Sequence record: MH791409.1
Length of the DNA stretch: 64,000 nucleotides
Source: Escherichia phage EcWhh-1
Reading direction: 5' to 3' (one strand)
The translations under genes and the position numbers were made by a program. The notes below the pieces were generated by a model. That model was not told the DNA's origin. It was given only the letters and a program-made list of their open reading frames with translations, and made no database searches. Positions 8,477 to 58,515 of this stretch are shown one piece after another; position 1 is the first letter of the stretch; each line of letters starts with the position of its first letter.

Positions 8477-8785
8477 TTAACGGTCACACCACCAACTCGA
8501 TACTTCAAAATCGGGTTCACCATCTTCCCAGTACCAAGGGCCGACCGGGTGCCAATCGCCGTGTTCATCTTCTTCAAATTCTTCGGATTCAAGCCCAACG
8601 TATTGCCATTGGACCTCATAAGCGGTGCCACCAATTACAACAGTGTTCTCGCCATACGGGTGAGCTACAGCAAAGTCTATACCTTCTGCTTTAGCCAGCC
8701 AAACCATATATTCGTATAGTTTATATTCCAGGTCATCTTCGGTGCCATCACCTAGAAAAATGGTTTGTTCGTTTAATTCAATCAT
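8477..8785 (-). CDS. Hypothetical acidic protein, 102 aa
   Basis: ORF; overlaps alternative-frame ORF 8344-8634 (see findings). Confidence 0.45.
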   Translation of the reverse strand: MIELNEQTIFLGDGTEDDLEYKLYEYMVWLAKAEGIDFAVAHPYGENTVVIGGTAYEVQWQYVGLESEEFEEDEHGDWHPVGPWYWEDGEPDFEVSSWWCDR

Positions 8786-8970
8786 AATTCCACCATAAAT
8801 TCAAATAGCTGGTCACGTACACAAGTATCAGTCCAACCCCATTTGGTGGCTTCTTCTTTTAACCAATCCGGGAGATTTGCCAATACGGTTTCTTTACTAG
8901 GCGCAGGAGTATCAAACTCACTTGCAAACTCTCTTGCGCAGGTTCCATAAGCTATATCAAATTCGGTCAT
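8782..8970 (-). CDS. Hypothetical protein, about 62 aa
   Basis: start moved to ATG 8970 (MTEFDIAYG...), ATGA overlap with upstream peptide; ORF-track start was TTG. Confidence 0.4.
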   Translation of the reverse strand: MTEFDIAYGTCAREFASEFDTPAPSKETVLANLPDWLKEEATKWGWTDTCVRDQLFEFMVEL

Positions 8971-24203: not shown

Positions 24204-24503
24204 TTAGAAAGAACCAGAACCTTTAATTGTGTTCTGACGACCTTTATTTTCTAATTCAGAGTGGTCGATTTCATATGCTTGTGCTACGCCAAAGGCCTTT
24301 TTAACTTTAGCTAAAGAACCTTTAGATGTAACAATATTAAAAGTATTACCTTTGGTAAAATCAACCAAATCGACTTGTACACCCTGTTTACCAAGGCTTG
24401 CTACAATAGCGTCAACATATTCTTGGTCTAAAGTGCCTTGGACTCCAATTTGAAATGCTTTAGGGGCTTTGGCTTCTGTAATAAATTCTTGATAAGTTTT
24501 CAT
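24204..24503 (-). CDS. Internal-protein-like capsid-targeted protein (CTS MKTYQEFITE), 99 aa
   Basis: N-terminal MKTYQEFITEA matches the T4 internal-protein capsid-targeting sequence with (I/L)-x-E cleavage motif. Confidence 0.6.
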   Translation of the reverse strand: MKTYQEFITEAKAPKAFQIGVQGTLDQEYVDAIVASLGKQGVQVDLVDFTKGNTFNIVTSKGSLAKVKKAFGVAQAYEIDHSELENKGRQNTIKGSGSF

Positions 24504-24970: not shown

Positions 24971-25020
24971 CTCCTGTAGTTGATAGGTCTATAGTATCAT
25001 GCCTACAGGAGAAGTAAACT
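24971..25020 (-). promoter_or_regulatory. PeSL-like early promoter cassette upstream of denV
   Basis: minus strand GTTTACTTCTCCTGTAGGCATGATACTATAGACCTATCAACTACAGGAGATT. Confidence 0.6.
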
Positions 25021-25418
25021 TATTTGTAAGTTTTCATCCAATTCTTAAACAAAGCTGCGACGTCTTTCTCTTTAACGTTCAATTTAACGTCCAGCATTTT
25101 GCCACCAGCGGCACGTGTCTGACGAATCTTAGCCGTACCGGTTTCGCCATTCCACTCAACATAATACTGTCCGGTGTTCATAGCGATACCATCGCCATAG
25201 TCTTCGTTCTTAGAAGTAGTGAATGCTAACTTCATGGTCTTAGAGACACGGGCCTGCATGCCTGTCTGCAGAGCGTTACGAACGCGAATAACCTGAGGAG
25301 TGGCCTGGGTAAGGTTCTCATTCAGTTCTTCAGTGAACTCTTCGGATTCAAACATCGCCAAAAGTTCTTTAGATGCAGGAATTACATTCTCTGCGATAAA
25401 TTCATTATAAGTTTTCAT
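25020..25418 (-). CDS. Internal-protein-like capsid-targeted protein ([13 protein letters not shown]), 132 aa
   Basis: N-terminal [11 protein letters not shown] leader. Confidence 0.6.
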
Positions 25419-25899
25419 ATGCTTTCCAAGTACCTGTTTTAAATGTAGAAATCACGCGCTTAGCACGATTAGGAGTTTGTCTATACCAACGAGATTGAGC
25501 CAGGTTAACTGCCGCATCGTCCCAACGTTTCTGTTGGAGCATACGTAAAGAGTTAGTGAACCCTGCTACGCCTGCTTCACCCATTTGGAAGACCATGTTA
25601 ATTAAAGCACAACGACGAACTTCGTCCAGTACATCATAAACAGGTTTCAATTTAGGATTACGCAGAATAGCTCTACGAGCATTTTCAACCGATCGGTTAA
25701 AGAGTTGCTCAGCTTCAGCCATAGTAATACGACCGTTGCAAACTCGACCCATAAGCTTATCAAGTTCAGCGCGAGCAACATCTTTAGATGGGTTCTTGGT
25801 AATCAACTGGCCAATGCCAATAGTCCAATAACCTTCGGTGTCTTTATAAAGATTTAAATCAAGACCTTCGTCTTGACGTAACATATCAAAAATATCCAT
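25405..25899 (-). CDS. e: Endolysin (T4 lysozyme e)
   Basis: 164 aa; [23 protein letters not shown]...[30 protein letters not shown] matches T4 lysozyme. Confidence 0.95.
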
Positions 25900-25929
25900 A
25901 ATACCTCCTGAGTATAGGAGGTATTTATA

Positions 25930-29988: not shown

Positions 29989-30216
29989 TTATTTTCCTAA
30001 CGAAACACGAGTAGGTTTTTTACCAAAATAGTCTTCGTAAGAACCATCTAAACGACCTGCTTTAGACCGACAATACGAATCATACTTTTTGTAATAAGTC
30101 ATCTCAGTATTATAACGTGGGTGTCTATCGGCCATAATAATACTTAGTGGCCAACCTTTGGCATAATCGCGAAGACCGTTTATTTTACGAATGTATCGTT
30201 TTTTCAATTTTAGCAT
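29989..30216 (-). CDS. Hypothetical basic protein, 75 aa
   Basis: ORF. Confidence 0.45.
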   Translation of the reverse strand: MLKLKKRYIRKINGLRDYAKGWPLSIIMADRHPRYNTEMTYYKKYDSYCRSKAGRLDGSYEDYFGKKPTRVSLGK

Positions 30217-30434
30217 GAGCTTGGGTACCAGATTTCACCATCGGCACGAGCAACGAAGGTGCGACCAGCTTCTTCACCATAACAAGAGCTATTCAGCCAA
30301 TCTTCGAGACGAACTTCACCGTCATAATCGTCGAGCTCAACACCAAAATCCTGAGCAGAAGCCATATCTTTTACTTTCTTATACAGTGCAGCCAGTTCAA
30401 GTGCCGCTTTTTCTAATTCATTAATAGTAGTCAT
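30210..30434 (-). CDS. C-terminal-Cys family member E (ends ...EIWYPSSC), about 74 aa
   Basis: start moved to ATG 30434 with SD AAGGTGA; helical N-terminus; tail resembles the four upstream paralogues. Confidence 0.5.
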   Translation of the reverse strand: MTTINELEKAALELAALYKKVKDMASAQDFGVELDDYDGEVRLEDWLNSSCYGEEAGRTFVARADGEIWYPSSC

Positions 30435-30444
30435 TTTTATCACC

Positions 30445-30654
30445 TTAGCAAGACATAGAGGAGCTAAACCAGAAACCTTCACCTTCAGGAATACCGTAAT
30501 CATCACGGACCCATTCGTAATCATCATATTCCGGACTAGAAGCTGGAATATATTCTTCGCCACCAGCGTGGAAGTGCTGACCTGTTTCGTCAGCCACGGA
30601 CTGGCCTTTACGTACTAATTCACGGATTTGTTTTTCAATTTCATCAATAGTCAT
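30445..30654 (-). CDS. C-terminal-Cys family member A (ends ...GFWFSSSMSC), 69 aa
   Basis: acidic; stop TAA followed by GG forming TAAGG SD for next gene. Confidence 0.55.
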   Translation of the reverse strand: MTIDEIEKQIRELVRKGQSVADETGQHFHAGGEEYIPASSPEYDDYEWVRDDYGIPEGEGFWFSSSMSC

Positions 30655-30663
30655 TTTATTTCC

Positions 30664-30861
30664 TTAGCATTCGTAAGAGGAGGACACCCAGGAGCCACCT
30701 GTAATTGTAATACAGCCATTGTAAATCGTGATATGACGGTCCAGATGGTTTTCACCATCGATATAGATATCAGCTTCTTCGCGTTCTTCTTTACAAATCT
30801 GGATAACGTTTTCAATAGCTGCGGCTGCAGTACGGATTGCACAATCTAGTTCACGAGACAT
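30664..30861 (-). CDS. C-terminal-Cys family member B (ends ...GGSWVSSSYEC), 65 aa
   Basis: same junction architecture TGC-TAA-GGAAA...ATG. Confidence 0.55.
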   Translation of the reverse strand: MSRELDCAIRTAAAAIENVIQICKEEREEADIYIDGENHLDRHITIYNGCITITGGSWVSSSYEC

Positions 30862-30870
30862 AATAATTCC

Positions 30871-31152
30871 TTAACATTCAGAAGAAGAGGACACCCAACC
30901 ACCATTTTCTAGGCTGGTAGTGTAATCATGTTGGTTTACAATAGCGTACTGAGCTTCACCGTATTCTTCCCAGTGGGCAAGGTCGGCTTTCAGGGCGCCA
31001 GGAGAATAATAGTCACCGCCCATACCGCGAGCAGGGTATATATTAAAATGAGTCTCATATTTGTTAGCAATTTCCTCAGCACGTCGAATAGCTTTATGGA
31101 TATCATTTACTGCTTTGGCCAGCTCTTTATTTTTACGGTAATCATTCATCAT
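30871..31152 (-). CDS. C-terminal-Cys family member C (ends ...NGGWVSSSSEC), 93 aa
   Basis: same junction architecture. Confidence 0.55.
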   Translation of the reverse strand: MMNDYRKNKELAKAVNDIHKAIRRAEEIANKYETHFNIYPARGMGGDYYSPGALKADLAHWEEYGEAQYAIVNQHDYTTSLENGGWVSSSSEC

Positions 31153-31161
31153 AGTGTTTCC

Positions 31162-31452
31162 TTAGCACATTGCTGAAGAGGAGACCCAAGCACCAACTGT
31201 AACGACACCATTTTCAACTTCACCGCCGTTGTTTTCAATTTCATCTTTAAACCACTGGGAGCATTCATAACCGACAGGATAATATGTACGGCCTGAACCA
31301 TAATCACCGGTGCCGAATTGGATACCATACTTATCGGCAATAGCTTCGCATTCATGTTCGATGGCATCTACTTTATTCAGAAGAGCATAGATAGCCTTTT
31401 CTGCAGATTTCTCGTCATTGTGTTCTGGGATTTCAATTTCAATTTTATTCAT
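31162..31452 (-). CDS. C-terminal-Cys family member D (ends ...VGAWVSSSAMC), 96 aa
   Basis: ATGA overlap with upstream membrane-protein gene; same tail. Confidence 0.55.
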   Translation of the reverse strand: MNKIEIEIPEHNDEKSAEKAIYALLNKVDAIEHECEAIADKYGIQFGTGDYGSGRTYYPVGYECSQWFKDEIENNGGEVENGVVTVGAWVSSSAMC

Positions 31453-32354: not shown

Positions 32355-32372
32355 GGGAGACCGAAGTCTCCC
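32355..32372 (-). promoter_or_regulatory. Intergenic stem-loop GGGAGAC-CGAA-GTCTCCC
   Basis: perfect 7-bp stem with tetraloop between two genes; same core as hairpin at 33415-33430. Confidence 0.35.
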
Positions 32373-33009: not shown

Positions 33010-33046
33010 TGAGGACATTATACCCTGTCCTCTGAGGGTTGTAAAC
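33010..33046 (-). promoter_or_regulatory. Early promoter (GTTTAC, 18 bp, TATAAT)
   Basis: minus strand GTTTACAACCCTCAGAGGACAGGGTATAATG. Confidence 0.55.
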
Positions 33047-33329: not shown

Positions 33330-33376
33330 TGTTGTTTTGATAGGTCTATAGTATCACGTTTAAAGGAGGTGTAAAC
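33330..33376 (-). promoter_or_regulatory. Early promoter cassette (GTTTAC, 17 bp, TACTAT, TAGACCTATCAAAAC)
   Basis: minus strand GTTTACACCTCCTTTAAACGTGATACTATAGACCTATCAAAACAACAGAGTGAAGGAG. Confidence 0.55.
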
Positions 33377-33410: not shown

Positions 33411-33430
33411 AAAAGGAGACCGAAGTCTCC
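33411..33430 (-). terminator. Terminator-like hairpin GGAGAC-TTCG-GTCTCC followed by TTTT
   Basis: directly after stop of IPIII-like gene. Confidence 0.45.
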
Positions 33431-33435
33431 TTTCA

Positions 33436-34053
33436 TTATTTACGGGTCTTTTCGAACTGAGCGGCGTCACCTGCAAGGCGGCGGGCTTGACGAAGTTTGT
33501 TATCAATTTCTTCGTGCATAGGCTGGGTATACTTAAGGCCTTCAACCGTCAGGTAAAGACGATAGAGGTCCGGGGTATCTAGGTTGTTAATGTGTTGACC
33601 ATTACGAAGAACATTGAATTCTCGAACAAGTTGTTTAGTTTCGGATTCGATTTCCGACACTAAAGAAGCCAGCTGGTTATATTTTTTAACAATAGTGCTG
33701 GTGTCGAACTTGATTTTAGGTTTAGGAGCTTCTTTTACAGGCTCTGCTTTAGGTGTAGGTTTCGGTGCTGCAACTTTGGTCTGAGCCGCGGGTTTAGAAA
33801 CAGGAGCTTTAGCTGGTTTAGCAGGCTTAGTAGAGCCACCGGCTACGATATCTTTAAAAGCTTTGGAAGCTTTGTAATATTCTTTCTGGCTACTAGTATC
33901 AAAACCATACATATCATAAACGTTTTTAAAGAACTCGGTAGTGGTTTTAGTCCCTGAAATTTTATCATAAGCAGCTTGCCACATATCTTTAGTCATGCGC
34001 ACGCTGGCTTCATTCAGAACGCTTTCGTTCAAAAATTCATTGTAAGTTTTCAT
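33436..34053 (-). CDS. Internal protein III-like capsid-targeted protein (CTS MKTYNEFLNE), 205 aa
   Basis: CTS leader; Lys/Ala/Pro-rich central region (KPAKPAKAPVSKPAAQTKVAAPKPTPKAEPVKEAPKPK) like T4 IPIII; late promoter upstream. Confidence 0.65.
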   Translation of the reverse strand: MKTYNEFLNESVLNEASVRMTKDMWQAAYDKISGTKTTTEFFKNVYDMYGFDTSSQKEYYKASKAFKDIVAGGSTKPAKPAKAPVSKPAAQTKVAAPKPTPKAEPVKEAPKPKIKFDTSTIVKKYNQLASLVSEIESETKQLVREFNVLRNGQHINNLDTPDLYRLYLTVEGLKYTQPMHEEIDNKLRQARRLAGDAAQFEKTRK

Positions 34054-34081
34054 TATTGTTTCCTGTGTTAATTAACTTATC

Positions 34082-34089
34082 TATTTATA
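34082..34089 (-). promoter_or_regulatory. Late promoter TATAAATA
   Basis: exact TATAAATA on minus strand about 28 nt upstream of ATG 34053. Confidence 0.5.
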
Positions 34090-34117
34090 CAAAAAGGCCC
34101 AACCTTTCGGAAGGGCC
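34090..34117 (-). terminator. Rho-independent terminator (GGCCC...GGGCC stem + T-tract)
   Basis: minus strand GGCCCTTCCGAAAGGTTGGGCCTTTTTG; identical hairpin at 34712-34740. Confidence 0.55.
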
Positions 34118-34122
34118 GTAAA

Positions 34123-34677
34123 TCAGTTCTTGTAGAACCGGAACGGGTTCACGTGGAAGGCCAACATAGCTTTAGGGATTTTACGAGACAAAAGACTCTT
34201 AAGCTTCCAGCCACAGTACACGCGAAGGTAAAATGTGATTCCGCCGACCTTAAGATAAGGAACTGAAGCAAATACACCCCAGGCGTCATCATTCCACATC
34301 CACAACCAACCATGGTGAGCTTTATCAGGAGAACCTGATTCTACGTCAGGATTACCACGATAATGGAATTCCGAGCTACAATCACGGCCTAGTTTATGAT
34401 AAGCAAAGTTATAAGCTTTATTTCGCCATAGCCAAGCTACTCTCTGGAGATAAACACCACCAGGCATTTTCCTGATTTTAGCCCAACGTTTAATATGACC
34501 TTTATCGCCGTCAATTGGATTATCGTATGTCATCATCCAATCAAAACCGTATGGCAATTTACCAGTCTTTTTATTATGAAAAGGAACCACAAAAGGCGCA
34601 AGGATAACGGCTAGAACCATAGAGATAAAATCTAGTGGGACCAACAGAATCCAACTCAAATATTTTAAAAGTTTCAT
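34123..34677 (-). CDS. Late-expressed membrane protein, 184 aa
   Basis: N-terminal hydrophobic helices; SD AGGAAATAAT + ATG; late promoter upstream. Confidence 0.6.
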   Translation of the reverse strand: MKLLKYLSWILLVPLDFISMVLAVILAPFVVPFHNKKTGKLPYGFDWMMTYDNPIDGDKGHIKRWAKIRKMPGGVYLQRVAWLWRNKAYNFAYHKLGRDCSSEFHYRGNPDVESGSPDKAHHGWLWMWNDDAWGVFASVPYLKVGGITFYLRVYCGWKLKSLLSRKIPKAMLAFHVNPFRFYKN

Positions 34678-34703: not shown

Positions 34704-34711
34704 TATTTATA
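34704..34711 (-). promoter_or_regulatory. Late promoter TATAAATA
   Basis: exact TATAAATA on minus strand 27 nt upstream of ATG 34677. Confidence 0.5.
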
Positions 34712-34740
34712 CAAAAAAGGCCCAACCTTTCGGAAGGGCC
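34712..34740 (-). terminator. Rho-independent terminator (same hairpin as 34090-34117) + T6
   Basis: minus strand GGCCCTTCCGAAAGGTTGGGCCTTTTTTGT. Confidence 0.55.
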
Positions 34741-34745
34741 TTTCA

Positions 34746-34976
34746 CCTAGGGTAACCTTGTCGGGGTTCCACCTGCTAGGCAAGTGTTCGGTGCGCCGTT
34801 TCAGCTGTGAGATAAGGGACTTTAAGAGGAACTCATGTACGCCTTAAAGTCGGGTCTTATTCAGGGAACTTCAGTCCGACGACTTACCGGTAGCGACCCG
34901 GTTTCTTGTTTGTTGCGCCGGTGAATGCTGGTAATCAGTCTTCATACGACGGCTTGACTATATAATAGTCTTCATT
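34746..34976 (-). ncRNA. Candidate stable small RNA region downstream of tRNA-Arg (position of T4 RNA C/RNA D)
   Basis: about 230 nt with no ORF, between tRNA 3' end and a terminator, with local hairpins; identity unverified. Confidence 0.25.
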
Positions 34977-35051
34977 TGGTATCCCGCCCTGGGATCGAAC
35001 CAGGACCGCAAACTTAGAAGGATCGTATGCTATCCATTACACCAGCGGGAC
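34977..35051 (-). tRNA. tRNA-Arg (anticodon UCU), CCA encoded
   Basis: minus strand GTCCCGCTGGTGTAATGGATAGCATACGATCCTTCTAAGTTTGCGGTCCTGGTTCGATCCCAGGGCGGGATACCA; 7-bp acceptor stem, T-loop TTCGATC, anticodon loop CTTCTAA. Confidence 0.85.
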
Positions 35052-35673
35052 GTAATTTATTTAAAAGACAAGACAAATCGGAAATCTCATCTTTTTCTAA
35101 AACTATCAAATTTTCTAAAGCTTTCCATTTACAAAGGTCTCTATCTCTTTTATATCCTTTGACTTCTATATAAAAATCATAAGTGGGTAAATAAAAATCA
35201 GGAAAATAGAGATGTTCTGAACCTTCCCATTCGTAAGGAATTGGCTTTATTTCATTAGTATATTTGATATTGTGTTCTTTTAAAAACTTAGCAACTTTTA
35301 ATTCCCAGGTCCCTTTAAATTTAAATCCGTCAAACTCGTATGTTTTTACTCGACCAGAAACATTAGAAGCAGAATATGAATCAGGATTATCAAGAACAGC
35401 TTGCCGCATTCTTTTAGAATGTGCTTCTTTGCGTTCATTAGACCATACATATCCTGTATTGGCTTTTCTAAGTTTTTCTCTGGTTTTATCAGAAACATTT
35501 ATTTCTTTACCTAGTTCTTTGGCTTTTGTAAATTGATTGACGCCTTTAAGACCAAAACGAGGGTTATTAGGGCCGCTCATATCCAATCCATTTGGGTTAG
35601 ATTTGCACCGTTTTTCATGTTGCTTTAGTGAATTTAAGTTTTTACATTCTTTAGAACAATATTGGCAAAGCAT
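35014..35673 (-). CDS. Zinc-finger PD-(D/E)xK-type nuclease (putative free-standing homing-endonuclease-like gene)
   Basis: N-terminal CQYCSKEC...HEKRC finger; C-terminal FPDFYLPTYDFYIEVKG resembles PDF...E-x-K nuclease core; start at ATG 35673 with SD GGAGA; 3' end overlaps tRNA-Arg by 38 nt. Confidence 0.6.
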   Translation of the reverse strand: MLCQYCSKECKNLNSLKQHEKRCKSNPNGLDMSGPNNPRFGLKGVNQFTKAKELGKEINVSDKTREKLRKANTGYVWSNERKEAHSKRMRQAVLDNPDSYSASNVSGRVKTYEFDGFKFKGTWELKVAKFLKEHNIKYTNEIKPIPYEWEGSEHLYFPDFYLPTYDFYIEVKGYKRDRDLCKWKALENLIVLEKDEISDLSCLLNKLRPAGVMDSIRSF

Positions 35674-35678
35674 AATTT

Positions 35679-35715
35679 TCTCCATGAATTTTATATAGAT
35701 ATTTATTCATGGAGA
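35679..35715 (-). promoter_or_regulatory. RBS-sequestering hairpin with late-promoter-like AATAAATA in its loop
   Basis: 11-bp inverted repeat TCTCCATGAAT/ATTCATGGAGA; 3' arm contains the GGAGA SD of the nuclease gene. Confidence 0.4.
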
Positions 35716-37767: not shown

Positions 37768-38040
37768 TTATTTTAAATAAATTGCATACTTTTTATAACC
37801 AGCCGTCTCGTGGCGCAACCCTTTTTCATTAGCAAAACGTTCAATATTGTTAATTTGATTCTGGTCAAGTTCTGAAGTATCAAATACAAAAAAGTTTCGC
37901 TTATTGCCTAAAGTTACATGATTAGTCAAATCAATGTTATAGAGATGATTTATATCATCAATCATAGTCTTAACAGATTTGTTAATTTTTACTTCCTCAT
38001 TAAGAATAGATTCAGCGATAAATTCTTGATAAGTTTTCAT
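37768..38040 (-). CDS. Internal-protein-like capsid-targeted protein (CTS MKTYQEFIAE), 90 aa
   Basis: CTS leader identical to T4 IP leader MKTYQEFIAE. Confidence 0.6.
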   Translation of the reverse strand: MKTYQEFIAESILNEEVKINKSVKTMIDDINHLYNIDLTNHVTLGNKRNFFVFDTSELDQNQINNIERFANEKGLRHETAGYKKYAIYLK

Positions 38041-38041
38041 T

Positions 38042-38266
38042 TTATTCTGCGCCAGCGGCTTTCAAAAGTTTTTTAAGATTGGCTGTACCTTGAGCAGAAA
38101 ACGTGACCTTGCCATCTTTTTCACCGATACTCCCGGTCAATTTAGCGAGCTTATCACTAGGGACTTTTTTAAAATCAGCCAATGTACCGTCAAAGGTTTT
38201 TGTAACAACCGGCAGTTGGTCTTCGTGTTTTTTAGCTTCTGTAATAAATTCTTGATAAGTTTTCAT
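38042..38266 (-). CDS. Internal-protein-like capsid-targeted protein (CTS MKTYQEFITE), about 74 aa
   Basis: start set at ATG 38266 (MKTYQEF) with SD TGGAAATCAAA. Confidence 0.55.
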   Translation of the reverse strand: MKTYQEFITEAKKHEDQLPVVTKTFDGTLADFKKVPSDKLAKLTGSIGEKDGKVTFSAQGTANLKKLLKAAGAE

Positions 38267-41950: not shown

Positions 41951-41958
41951 TATAAATA
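41951..41958 (+). promoter_or_regulatory. Late promoter TATAAATA for gene 53
   Basis: exact TATAAATA on plus strand 28 nt upstream of ATG 41986. Confidence 0.55.
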
Positions 41959-41965
41959 TTAATAT

Positions 41966-41973
41966 TATTTATA
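41966..41973 (-). promoter_or_regulatory. Late promoter TATAAATA for gene 4
   Basis: exact TATAAATA on minus strand 27 nt upstream of ATG 41939. Confidence 0.55.
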
Positions 41974-56175: not shown

Positions 56176-58482
56176 ATGATTAACAAATTGGAACTTAGTG
56201 AGTTACCATTTGTTGACGGCGTACCTGATGCTCCTCAAAAGCGTATCCAATGGATACGCGAGGGTGATTGTATGTCTGCAGCAAAAACAAAATACGGCAA
56301 TGAAGGTAATTTGAACGCTGCTGCTTTAGGAGTTCAGAAAAACGTAGAAGCTCTTGATGCCAACGATTTAAAAACTGCTGATAAAGTTAATGAGCTTATA
56401 GAAAACGTTAATAATATCAATGACGCTTTAGAAATGTCAACAGATATTTCTATCATTCAACAAATAGAGAAAAACCGTGTTGATATTGTAGACCTTAAAA
56501 AAGTCACCGAAGATACAACAGAAAAATTGGACACCTTAACAACCAATTTTGATTTCTTGCGTGAAGATGTTGGATACCATGACCCTTTACAAGACGGGCC
56601 ATATTTAACTGTACGTGAAAATATTGTTCTTCTTAAAAATGAAATTGGTCACTATGAGGACCAGGATATAAACGGTAATCCTTTACCTCCAGGTGAAACT
56701 AGTGAAGCCACTGGTATAAAACGCCGCATCATGGATAATACCACTGAATTGGTGGACCATCGTCTTCGTATTGATACCCTTGAAAGAAACTATGAAGATT
56801 CTGATGTTGGGCAATTAGGTATTAAACTAAATGAAATTCGTGCCGAATTAGGACCACATTCTGATACGGTAGGTAAACAACCCGCTTACACCCGAATTTC
56901 AGTATTAGAAACGGCTGCAGTTAATTTTAATACGGCTATTGACGAAATTAAGGATAATATTGATTTCTCTGGTATGCCTATAAAGGACCGAGTAACTACT
57001 TTAGAAAGCAAAACCTTTACCTTAGAAAATTCAGTTAACGTTGATTTAAAACCTAGAGTAACTTCTATAGAAACTCAAATCGGTTCCGAGTCTGCACCAG
57101 CATCTATTAATGGACGTTTAAGTGGGCTTCGTACCGATGTAAATGATTTAAAAACCGTTGTTGGTAATAGTTCTAGTGAAGGGCTTCGTTTCCAGGTTTC
57201 CGATATTAATCGACGCCTTGGTAGTGAAGTGTCTCCTGCTGCTGGCACAATTAATAAGCGTTTGAATGATGTTATTATTCAAGCAAACCAATCTACCTCG
57301 TCCATCCAGGATATTCAGGTAGAAATTGGTAACAACCAATCTGGTATTAAGGGTACTTTACTTAAACTCACCGATAAGGTTGACGGGACGAACCCTAACG
57401 GAGCTACCGTAGAAGAACGTGGTCTTATTAATGCGGTTACTTCTTTAGAAACCCAGATTCAAGGTAAATTAGGTGATGCACCTTCTGATGGTAAACTCTA
57501 TGCACGTCGAAATGCGGCATGGGCTGAAGTTGTTAATAATTCCACAGAAATAGAAACCGTTAAAGCCGATTTAGTTGTTACCGACGGTAAAGTGACCGCT
57601 TTAACTTCCAGAGTAGATGGTAATGATACCTCAATTTCTTCTCTTGATACTCGTACCGGTGCATTAAACACTTCGGTTGGCGAGATTAAAGCTGATATAG
57701 TTTCTATAAAGGCTAAAGATGATGAACAGGATGGTCGTTTAACAGCACTTGAATCTAGTGATGTGACCATTAACGGTAAAATTGCTGCTCTTGAAACTAA
57801 GACAGATACCACTGATGATGATGTCACAGCACTAGCTTTAGACGTTTCTTCTTTAGAGAACCAATTGACTCCTATAAAAGCCGATATTACCAAAAACAAA
57901 GGTGATATTGTTGCCTTAACTGGTCGAGTGGCTTCTACTGAAGGCGAAATTAATGCAATTAAAGTTGATACAGCCAAAATTGCTCCTTTAACAACTAGAG
58001 TTACTACGGCAGAAGGTAAAATCACTACTTTAGAAACAGGGCTTGCCTCTGTTAAAGTCGAATCCGATAAGGTAGCAGGTATTAATACCCGCCTTAGCAC
58101 TGCAGAAGGTGACATCGGAACACTTAAAACAGGGTTGGCTGAAGTTAAGGGTGAATCCGATAAAGTAGCAGCTATAGATACCCGTTTGGGTGTTGTTGAA
58201 GTTGAATCAGGTAAAGTAGCAGGAATCGATGCTCGTTTGGGTGATGTTGAAGGCGAAGTTAGTACTCTTGAAACAGGTTTGGCTGCAGTTAAAGTTGAAT
58301 CTGATAAAGTTGCTGACTTAGGAACCCGTTTAACCGCTGCCGAAGGTAAAATTACAGCCTTAGAAACAGAATTATCTAAACGTCCACCGGTGGCTCCTGC
58401 CGCAGACGGACTTCCGTATGTTCTGGTTGATAACGCATGGGTATTATTGTCTGATTTTGTGACTTTAAACTCAGCACCATAA
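56176..58482 (+). CDS. wac: Fibritin (whisker antigen control) with C-terminal foldon-like domain
   Basis: 768 aa coiled coil; C-terminus ADGLPYVLVDNAWVLLSDF resembles T4 foldon; longer than T4 Wac. Confidence 0.85.
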   Translation: MINKLELSELPFVDGVPDAPQKRIQWIREGDCMSAAKTKYGNEGNLNAAALGVQKNVEALDANDLKTADKVNELIENVNNINDALEMSTDISIIQQIEKNRVDIVDLKKVTEDTTEKLDTLTTNFDFLREDVGYHDPLQDGPYLTVRENIVLLKNEIGHYEDQDINGNPLPPGETSEATGIKRRIMDNTTELVDHRLRIDTLERNYEDSDVGQLGIKLNEIRAELGPHSDTVGKQPAYTRISVLETAAVNFNTAIDEIKDNIDFSGMPIKDRVTTLESKTFTLENSVNVDLKPRVTSIETQIGSESAPASINGRLSGLRTDVNDLKTVVGNSSSEGLRFQVSDINRRLGSEVSPAAGTINKRLNDVIIQANQSTSSIQDIQVEIGNNQSGIKGTLLKLTDKVDGTNPNGATVEERGLINAVTSLETQIQGKLGDAPSDGKLYARRNAAWAEVVNNSTEIETVKADLVVTDGKVTALTSRVDGNDTSISSLDTRTGALNTSVGEIKADIVSIKAKDDEQDGRLTALESSDVTINGKIAALETKTDTTDDDVTALALDVSSLENQLTPIKADITKNKGDIVALTGRVASTEGEINAIKVDTAKIAPLTTRVTTAEGKITTLETGLASVKVESDKVAGINTRLSTAEGDIGTLKTGLAEVKGESDKVAAIDTRLGVVEVESGKVAGIDARLGDVEGEVSTLETGLAAVKVESDKVADLGTRLTAAEGKITALETELSKRPPVAPAADGLPYVLVDNAWVLLSDFVTLNSAP
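58046..58330 (+). repeat. Imperfect tandem coding repeats inside wac (ESDKVA-type units)
   Basis: motif GAATC[C/A/T]G[A/G]TAA[A/G]GT[A/T]GC recurs near 58064, 58154, 58204, 58297. Confidence 0.4.
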
Positions 58483-58487
58483 TAAAA

Positions 58488-58506
58488 GGGCTTCGGCCCT
58501 TTTTTG
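58488..58506 (+). terminator. Rho-independent terminator GGGC-TTCG-GCCC + T6 after wac
   Basis: AAAAGGGCTTCGGCCCTTTTTTG. Confidence 0.55.
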
Positions 58507-58507
58507 C

Positions 58508-58515
58508 TATAAATA
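58508..58515 (+). promoter_or_regulatory. Late promoter TATAAATA for gene 13
   Basis: exact TATAAATA 22 nt upstream of ATG 58537. Confidence 0.6.

Follow-up and report, generated by a model that had tools for sequence, protein, structure and literature searches.

The 205-aa open reading frame at 34053..33436 on the minus strand of the window, by which we mean the whole 64-kb stretch of DNA analysed here, probably encodes an internal head (ejection) protein that is transcribed late from a self-contained unit, directed to the prohead by a capsid-targeting sequence (CTS) and processed by gp21, and that represents a new, unannotated family. The source phage is a Dhakavirus, a JS98-like, T4-type member of the Tevenvirinae. 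Over the 900 bp surrounding the gene, the window is 99.8% identical to Escherichia phage UP19 and 98% identical to JS98, in which the open reading frame corresponds to orf135 and is annotated as 'hypothetical protein'.

The gene, the hairpin in front of it and its late-promoter motif are all located on the minus strand, where the upstream gene's stop codon is followed by ACGGCCCTTCCGAAAGGTTGGGCC, TTTTT, a single G, TATAAATA, 28 nt containing AGGA, and the ATG. Upstream of the hairpin lies a DUF7338 gene (34123..34677, minus strand; JS98 orf136, PHROG 2143), which is placed between two copies of the hairpin and whose presence varies among Dhakaviruses. It is preceded by a homologue of the T4 stable RNA rnaD that is fused to the 3' end of rnaC (34763..34913, minus strand) and by tRNA-Arg(TCT) (34977..35051, minus strand; ARAGORN and Rfam), the last member of a prereplicative tRNA cluster. 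The stable-RNA homologue was recognized in an alignment with T4 rnaD/rnaC and Mosigvirus G2469, the 150 nt 5' of the first hairpin copy aligning with T4 rnaD plus the rnaC 3' end, while the rnaC body is absent from the window. An Rfam search of this upstream noncoding stretch yielded the tRNAs and a sub-threshold match to the sRNA BjrC68 (21.8 bits), and nothing else; the BjrC68 match was dismissed, as the rnaD/rnaC alignment accounts for the stretch. The placement of the target gene between the tRNA cluster and e.8 is kept in all seven divergent relatives examined. A chance open reading frame was ruled out because the gene is conserved in at least six genera and its indels, all in frame, affect only the linker region of the protein.

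The leader, the protein and its family

The preliminary description of this DNA had proposed a leader-bearing 205-aa protein, and a T4-type CTS with prohead-protease sites is indeed present. Residues 1-15 (34009..34053, minus strand) comprise MKTYNEFLNE and SVLNE, each segment ending in an L-x-E site, with A following; the predicted cleavage sites are thus L8-N-E10 and L13-N-E15, and the protein carries no L/I-x-E past residue 15. In T4-type internal head proteins, a propeptide of 10-19 residues ends in such a site. T4 IPII and IPIII both begin with MKTYQEFIAE. In the CTS of IPIII, residues 4 and 7 mainly determine targeting, residues 8 and 10 govern processing, gp21 cleaves after L/I-x-E, and the first 10 residues are enough for encapsidation, including that of foreign proteins in T4 (PMC9026906). 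With Y4, F7, L8 and E10, the target satisfies all four mapped positions, Y4 and F7 being identical to IPIII. Family relatives have Y or F at position 4 and F or I at position 7, and [L/I]-x-E with P1 at residue 9-12 is found in 13 of 13 diverse members, nine of which contain a second L/I-x-E before residue 31. The mature N-terminus that follows the site is likewise conserved among family members (A/S-G/S-x-RMTK). Identification of the leader as a signal peptide was rejected because it is not hydrophobic. The same leader occurs on four other open reading frames of the window, three of which fall into PHROGs named internal head or internal virion protein; the CTS frames at 25418..25020 and 24503..24204 are located downstream of e. 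A head maturation protease and head scaffolding proteins are annotated in UP19, the closest complete genome, their genes lying outside the window.

Behind the leader, the protein is divided into two folded domains and a linker. The N-terminal helical domain (aa 16-72; 33838..34008, minus strand) was delineated from alignments, which reveal the conserved pattern RMTK..W..YG..QK.YYK..AFK, and from AF2 models (pLDDT ~83-88). It is followed by a disordered basic linker (aa 73-115; 33709..33837, minus strand) composed of 23% P, 21% A and 26% K with a net charge of +9, and by a C-terminal three-helix bundle (aa 116-205; 33439..33708, minus strand; AF2 pLDDT 90-97). Based on a 14-sequence alignment, AlphaFold predicted a four-helix N-domain for aa 20-72 (pLDDT ~83), disorder for aa 73-116 and, confidently, a three-helix C-domain for aa 119-204 (pLDDT 90-97). 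The linker contains a 9-nt tandem repeat and differs in length among relatives; the Lys/Ala/Pro-rich string KPAKPAKAPVSKPAAQTKVAAPKPTPK occupies aa 76-102. The predicted mature protein comprises 190 aa (21.4 kDa, pI 9.66, net charge +12). Searches of Pfam and NCBIfam returned no family match for the target, only low-complexity matches below threshold, and profile matches to PDB sequences were limited to the Pro/Ala/Lys tract. With the first model, Foldseek detected nothing below E = 0.7 in the PDB, and BFVD contained uncharacterised family members only. Because structure and profile searches thus recover only generic helical bundles or uncharacterised relatives, they lend no support to any particular function after injection.

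The only PHROG matched by the target is 2280, labelled 'unknown function'. A search of 5.8 billion sequences retrieved 16 unnamed clusters that stem exclusively from T4-like phages, and an exhaustive profile search against 1.84 billion representatives gave 13 matches. By tblastn, the 205-aa type is present in about 140 phage records, in Dhaka-, Mosig-, Winkler-, Kanagawa-, Karam- and Marfavirus as well as in Erwinia and Cronobacter phages. PHROG 2280 also includes a divergent allele of 157 aa, which is found in 511 records. Most of them come from phages that infect Escherichia, Shigella or Yersinia, and the majority are apparently Tequatrovirus. The allele is missing from the T4 reference strain but is carried by many other Tequatroviruses. 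In every one of these records, about 650 in all, the product is called 'hypothetical', and our literature search yielded neither virion proteomes nor transcript maps for family members, and nothing usable of either kind for Dhaka- or Mosigvirus and their relatives. Members pair N-domains of types A and B with C-domains of types 1, 2 and 3 around the linker. As different N- and C-domains are combined in this way, the sequences point to a modular protein.

We consider it unlikely that the product is instead a basic late protein associated with DNA or with assembly and not kept in the virion, its CTS being a by-product of cassette recombination or serving for transient targeting to the core, with degradation or expulsion to follow, as for scaffold. 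The leader can travel with the cassette, as the promoter, the 5' UTR and the first 16 codons are DNA-identical in the divergent 157-aa allele of vB_EcoM_005. Moreover, T4 IPIII mutants show head-assembly defects, so that large internal proteins can have a role in assembly (PMC9026906). Nor do relatives avoid internal L/I-x-E sites: the depletion in mature regions that would mark exposure to gp21 was not seen, with 12 sites observed vs 13.9 expected. Against this reading, leader and cleavage site are retained by all 13 divergent members, across at least six genera and in some cases behind unrelated 5' UTRs; ten such residues suffice to encapsidate foreign proteins in T4 (PMC9026906); and the window protein itself is free of further sites beyond its leader.

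For the internal head protein that we favour, identity at the positions mapped in T4 suggests that MKTYNEFLNE would bring the 205-aa precursor to the scaffolding core of the prohead. There, the prohead protease would cut after L-N-E10 and/or L-N-E15, leaving a product of 190-195 aa (~21 kDa, pI 9.7) in which a basic, disordered linker rich in Lys, Ala and Pro connects a small helical N-domain to a three-helix C-domain. Such a protein would be kept in the head among the DNA, with the lysine-rich linker probably touching phosphates, and would be injected together with the genome.

The late promoter and the hairpins at the ends of the unit

An exact TATAAATA, the T4-type late promoter (-13 to -6), is found at 34082..34089 (minus strand). 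It is separated from the ATG by exactly 28 nt, as had been claimed approximately in the preliminary description, and predicts the G at 34076 as +1 (numbering according to PMC2988020). The 28 nt of spacer and 5' UTR (34054..34081, minus strand) include an AGGA Shine-Dalgarno sequence at 34064..34061. In Dhaka-, Mosig-, Karam-, Marfa-, Winkler- and Kanagawavirus, NATAAATA is positioned 25-36 nt upstream of the homologous gene within divergent flanks. The exact TATAAATA is present in Dhaka-, Mosig- and Karamvirus, and the first base is C or G in Marfa-, Winkler- and Kanagawavirus, the variation among the six genera being confined to -13. This position varies among T4 late promoters too; as these promoters lack a -35 element (PMC2988020), there is room for a terminator immediately next to the motif. 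The annotation of UP19 includes a late sigma transcription factor, an RNA polymerase binding protein and a DNA polymerase processivity factor. Once replication has begun, RNA polymerase modified by gp55, gp33 and gp45 would start at TATAAATA, with no -35 element being needed.

It is very improbable that TATAAATA is a chance AT-rich match and that expression is mainly prereplicative, driven by an overlooked early or middle promoter or by transcripts that run on from the tRNA unit. By its number, the motif could be fortuitous, as nine exact copies in 64 kb vs 7.9 expected are not above chance; the T4 internal protein genes use sigma-70-like promoters, and the hairpin upstream, having an internal loop and only U5, may terminate partially. 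The positions of the motif, however, are far from random: a Shine-Dalgarno sequence, an ATG and an open reading frame of at least 50 codons follow 8-45 nt downstream of seven of the nine exact copies, compared to 9.6% of other A5T3 8-mers (p = 2e-6). Motif and spacing are also kept in six genera, a scan between hairpin and ATG found no sigma-70-like promoter, and an identical cassette serves the neighbouring DUF7338 gene, 26 nt upstream of which a motif search located a further exact TATAAATA (34704..34711, minus strand).

The late promoter had further been described as lying directly downstream of a GGCCC...GGGCC hairpin. The sequence bears this out: the hairpin GGCCCTTCCGAAAGGTTGGGCC (34096..34117, minus strand) continues into U5 (34091..34095), and the T5 is followed by a single G and then by TATAAATA, such that this terminator-like element abuts the promoter of the target. 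The hairpin, referred to as copy 2, consists of five G-C pairs and two inner pairs closed by a GAAA loop; for GGCCCUUCCGAAAGGUUGGGCC plus U5, the folding energy is -15.3 kcal/mol (z = -2.8 vs dinucleotide shuffles). An internal loop in the stem caused it to be missed by a simple consensus terminator scan. Copy 1, GGCCCTTCCGAAAGGTTGGGCC plus T6 (34719..34740, minus strand), is the putative terminator of the tRNA/stable-RNA unit; its region, the 44 nt before TATAAATA, folds with -19.8 kcal/mol when a small extra 5' stem is included.

Copy 1 is homologous, in sequence and in place, to the hairpin at the end of the T4 tRNA region, where GCCCCGACCGAAAGGTTGGGGC-T5 directly follows rnaC (species 1 RNA) at the same position relative to the rnaC 3' end. 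The second stem pair is C-G in T4 and Mosigvirus and G-C in Dhakavirus, a compensatory change. Behind the T4 hairpin there is no late promoter: GGTATCTAAG takes the place of TATAAATA, about 150 nt of noncoding DNA then lead up to the early promoter of e.8, and no gene is present there in the T4 reference strain. Judged by its sequence, the hairpin is a resident, conserved terminator of the prereplicative tRNA/rnaD/rnaC unit. That it would terminate transcription in vivo we infer from its homology to the T4 hairpin, which serves as a transcription terminator. Given this homology and the structure with its U-run, both the prereplicative tRNA/rnaD-rnaC transcripts and the late DUF7338 transcripts would end at a GGCCC...GGGCC hairpin. 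Since the DUF7338 gene has an identical late promoter, the transcription stopped by copy 2 would be largely late too. Hairpins are located 0-9 nt upstream of the motif in four genera, with different stem sequences. In a genome-wide analysis of UP19, hairpins just upstream of TATAAATA were not enriched (5 of 27 vs 13% at random positions); a UP19-wide design in which hairpins abut late promoters was accordingly rejected, and the arrangement is locus-specific.

At the other end, a second type of hairpin, AAAGGAGAC-UUCG-GUCUCCUUU (33412..33433, minus strand), starts 2 nt past the stop codon (-15.2 kcal/mol, z = -3.3), and another copy of its core is present at 32356..32371. Further downstream follows a sigma-70-type, T4 early-like promoter, TTTACA-16-TACTAT with an upstream TG (33348..33375, minus strand), which is homologous to the region upstream of T4 e.8 and would restart prereplicative transcription into e.8. 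The predicted transcript of the target would run from about 34076, with a 23-nt leader, to the UUCG hairpin just past the stop codon. Because this hairpin closes the 3' end and the sigma-70-type e.8 promoter comes next, the gene appears to form a monocistronic late island in an otherwise prereplicative region of the same strand. Taken together, the CTS, the canonical late promoter and the abutting terminator-homologous hairpin make late, insulated expression of a head-internal protein the best reading, as the preliminary description had it; the part of that proposal which did not hold is the likening to IPIII.

Comparison with the internal proteins of T4

The gene had been called IPIII-like, in part for a Lys/Ala/Pro-rich centre resembling that of T4 IPIII. 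The Lys/Ala/Pro-rich centre exists in the target, whereas T4 IPIII contains 2% Pro and no Pro/Ala/Lys tract. What the two proteins have in common, besides the CTS with its L/I-x-E site and the location of both genes on the 'early' strand of a T4-type phage, are bulk properties: mature T4 IPIII (IPIII*) measures 183 aa and 20.4 kDa, with a pI of 9.65 and a net charge of +10, and is near-identical to the predicted mature target in size, pI and charge. The likeness to IPIII is one of mass, pI and net charge only. As UP19 has no IPIII homologue, the target could in principle be a replacement. A diverged homologue or orthologue of T4 IPIII is nonetheless effectively refuted: BLASTP similarity is restricted to aa 1-25 (E = 0.004); the proteins belong to PHROGs 2280 and 5341, which do not cross-match; Mosigvirus G2469 encodes both a 192-aa IPIII orthologue, placed with an IPII orthologue beside e and denV, and a separate 208-aa PHROG 2280 member; the genomic positions differ; and IPIII lacks the two-domain layout. 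In T4, the order is tRNAs, rnaD, rnaC, e.8 ... e, ipIII, ipII, with ipIII following e, whereas the target is inserted between tRNA-Arg/rnaD and e.8. The widespread, previously unannotated family to which it belongs is unrelated to T4 IPIII.

The mode of expression also sets the target apart. T4 ipI, ipII and ipIII have sigma-70-like promoters, that of ipIII being just upstream of the gene, and no TATAAATA within 110 nt, so that by its dedicated late promoter the target differs from the T4 internal protein genes rather than resembling them. In the complete genome of UP19, no homologues of mature T4 IPI, IPII or IPIII were found, with tblastn of mature IPIII giving only E > 0.7. Because the target homologue is, in addition, the sole CTS open reading frame of more than 100 aa in UP19, the target may fill the niche of a 'large basic IP' in this phage; it is also the only CTS frame there with its own TATAAATA. 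Internal proteins of T-even phages are diverse and have the CTS alone in common (reviewed in PMC3012670).

Module exchange at the hairpin and possible functions

The hairpin and its T-run, 27 nt in total, form two exact copies 623 bp apart (34740..34714 and 34117..34091), each followed by G-TATAAATA, so that the DUF7338 gene is bracketed by two hairpin/promoter cassettes. UP19 contains a third copy of the hairpin, without promoter, between convergent genes. Among Dhakaviruses, the sequence on the left of the hairpin is either the rnaC end or the DUF7338 3' end, and that on the right is the late promoter with the DUF7338 gene, the late promoter with the CTS gene, or the early promoter with e.8. 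The window, JS98 and UP19 possess both the DUF7338 and the CTS gene, IME08 and CLB_P2 the CTS gene only, and MX01 and JS10 the DUF7338 gene only; in vB_EcoM_005 and WG01, the 157-aa allele is followed by the DUF7338 gene. In vB_EcoM_005, the DNA shared with the window extends from the promoter through the 5' UTR to codon 16 and then gives way to the divergent 157-aa body. The hairpin is a breakpoint of gene-module swaps among Dhakaviruses.

This organization resembles the PeSL cassettes of RB49 and phi1, mobile regulatory units composed of a stem-loop and a promoter (Arbiol et al., 2010; PMC2839356). In both cases, a repeated stem-loop terminator and promoter surround a non-essential open reading frame, and the repeats coincide with breakpoints of insertions, deletions and replacements. 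The PeSL elements differ in having a sigma-70-type early promoter and a polyG/polyC stem (PMC2839356), whereas the elements described here carry an 8-bp late motif and a GGCCC/GGGCC stem; no PeSL-type -35/-10 pair was found in the window cassette. In addition, the window hairpin is an old resident terminator after rnaC, the mobility of which is not obvious.

Two injected CTS proteins are known as anti-restriction factors, with T4 IPI* countering GmrSD and Bas37_0260 countering McrBC. The target shares with them the leader only, together with the residence in a hyperplastic region and a presence or allelic form that varies between close relatives, and its family displays the domain shuffling expected of arms-race genes. 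Compared to IPI, the target is about twice as large, has two domains and a basic disordered linker, and is encoded outside the ipI locus. By analogy with IPI* and Bas37_0260, it may act as an anti-defence effector, a role that is plausible because another, non-homologous CTS protein inhibits McrBC (bioRxiv 10.1101/2025.11.20.689424). More speculatively, though we regard it as conceivable, PHROG 2280 could be a modular family of injected effectors in which a CTS, at least two N-domains, a basic linker and at least three C-domains are shuffled between genera, the domains being directed at host defence or host takeover. The hairpin/late-promoter unit could then be the late-gene counterpart of PeSL, a recombination linker for swapping late, head-packaged cargo without disturbing the surrounding early transcription.

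These findings are a modest addition to a known theme and leave current understanding in place. The polymorphism at the hairpin junction provides a documented late-promoter example for the modular-shuffling model of T4 hyperplastic regions, and the predicted unit, a natural, strictly late and terminator-insulated CTS expression cassette, could be used for packaging foreign proteins. To our knowledge, internal head proteins alone among phage proteins are in place as early as DNA entry into the cell, and the few that we know to have been studied in detail, IPI* and Bas37_0260, act against restriction. A CTS/internal-protein identity for a family that is listed as 'hypothetical' in about 650 genomes of T4-type phages, of which many are candidates for therapeutic use, would make its members concrete candidates for an anti-defence screen.

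Repeated hairpin and late-promoter cassette

A cassette consisting of a hairpin, a T-run, a G and the exact late-promoter motif TATAAATA is present twice on the minus strand as a direct repeat, at 34704..34740 and 34082..34117. The two copies lie 623 bp apart, with a DUF7338 gene (34677..34123) between them. Dhakaviruses differ in whether the DUF7338 module and the module of the CTS gene (named for its capsid-targeting sequence) are present, absent or replaced, and the hairpin is where these differences break. In UP19 the Dhakavirus hairpin recurs a third time as an exact copy, located outside the window between convergent genes at 58453..58474. A homologous hairpin has been kept 3' of rnaC in T4 (NC_000866, locus 8690..8860, minus strand), where it is followed by GGTATCTAAG and then by about 150 nt of non-coding DNA, whereas relatives have the CTS gene at this position. 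The non-coding stretch of T4 may be a deletion scar.

Elsewhere in the window, on the plus strand, a second hairpin (GGGCTTCGGCCC plus T6; 58480..58515), unrelated to the first, immediately adjoins another TATAAATA, and at 41951..41973 each strand bears an exact TATAAATA, with 8 bp between the two, giving a divergent late-promoter pair.

Stable RNAs and tRNA cluster

A homologue of rnaD, a stable RNA of T4, is fused directly to the 3'-terminal ~25 nt of rnaC (34763..34913, minus strand); the window lacks the body of rnaC, which both T4 and Mosigvirus possess. No Rfam model detects the rnaD/rnaC RNAs. Between tRNA-Met and tRNA-Arg lies a 223-aa endonuclease-like ORF (35014..35685, minus strand; PHROG 15137, E = 1.5e-39), the final 38 nt of which overlap tRNA-Arg. 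At this locus, the window is missing the tRNA-Asn of UP19 and JS98, and a homing endonuclease is annotated in phage AnYang. The placement of the endonuclease is reminiscent of segB in the T4 tRNA cluster.

CTS-leader genes and lysozyme gene e

Four more minus-strand ORFs begin with the leader MKTY(Q/N)EF(I/L)xE: 38266..38042 (74 aa), 38040..37768 (90 aa), 25418..25020 (132 aa) and 24503..24204 (99 aa). Two of them reside in the ipI locus, 3' of an early-type promoter, and two occupy the positions of T4 ipIII and ipII downstream of the lysozyme gene e. One of the four, the 132-aa ORF (PHROG 15461, "unknown function"), in place of which UP19 has an 89-aa CTS ORF, has a start codon that overlaps the 3' end of the lysozyme gene. 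At the e homologue, TATAAATA is followed by a CCTCCTATACTCAGGAGG hairpin (25929..25890, minus strand). In T4, the Shine-Dalgarno sequence of gene e is sequestered by a hairpin in longer early transcripts; the CCTCCTATACTCAGGAGG hairpin would likewise hide that of the homologue in such transcripts.

Within the CTS gene, a 9-nt unit repeated in tandem (TTTAGCAGG x 2.6 as read on the plus strand; 33808..33830) codes for part of the Pro/Ala/Lys linker, the length of which varies between close relatives (202-208 aa), consistent with slippage.

Reused terminators and promoters

Further minus-strand elements are duplicated, namely the downstream UUCG hairpin core GGAGACTTCGGTCTCC (33412..33433 and 32356..32371) and an early-promoter -35 region (GTTTACA...; 33348..33375 and about 33017..33045). 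The entire region from the tRNAs to e.6 forms a mosaic in which terminator and promoter cassettes are used repeatedly. Separately, 30210..31452 (minus strand) holds a series of small paralogous ORFs of 65-117 aa, all with a W(V/F)SSSxxC-like C-terminus (GGWVSSSSEC, GAWVSSSAMC, GSWVSSSYEC, FWFSSSMSC, IWYPSSC).
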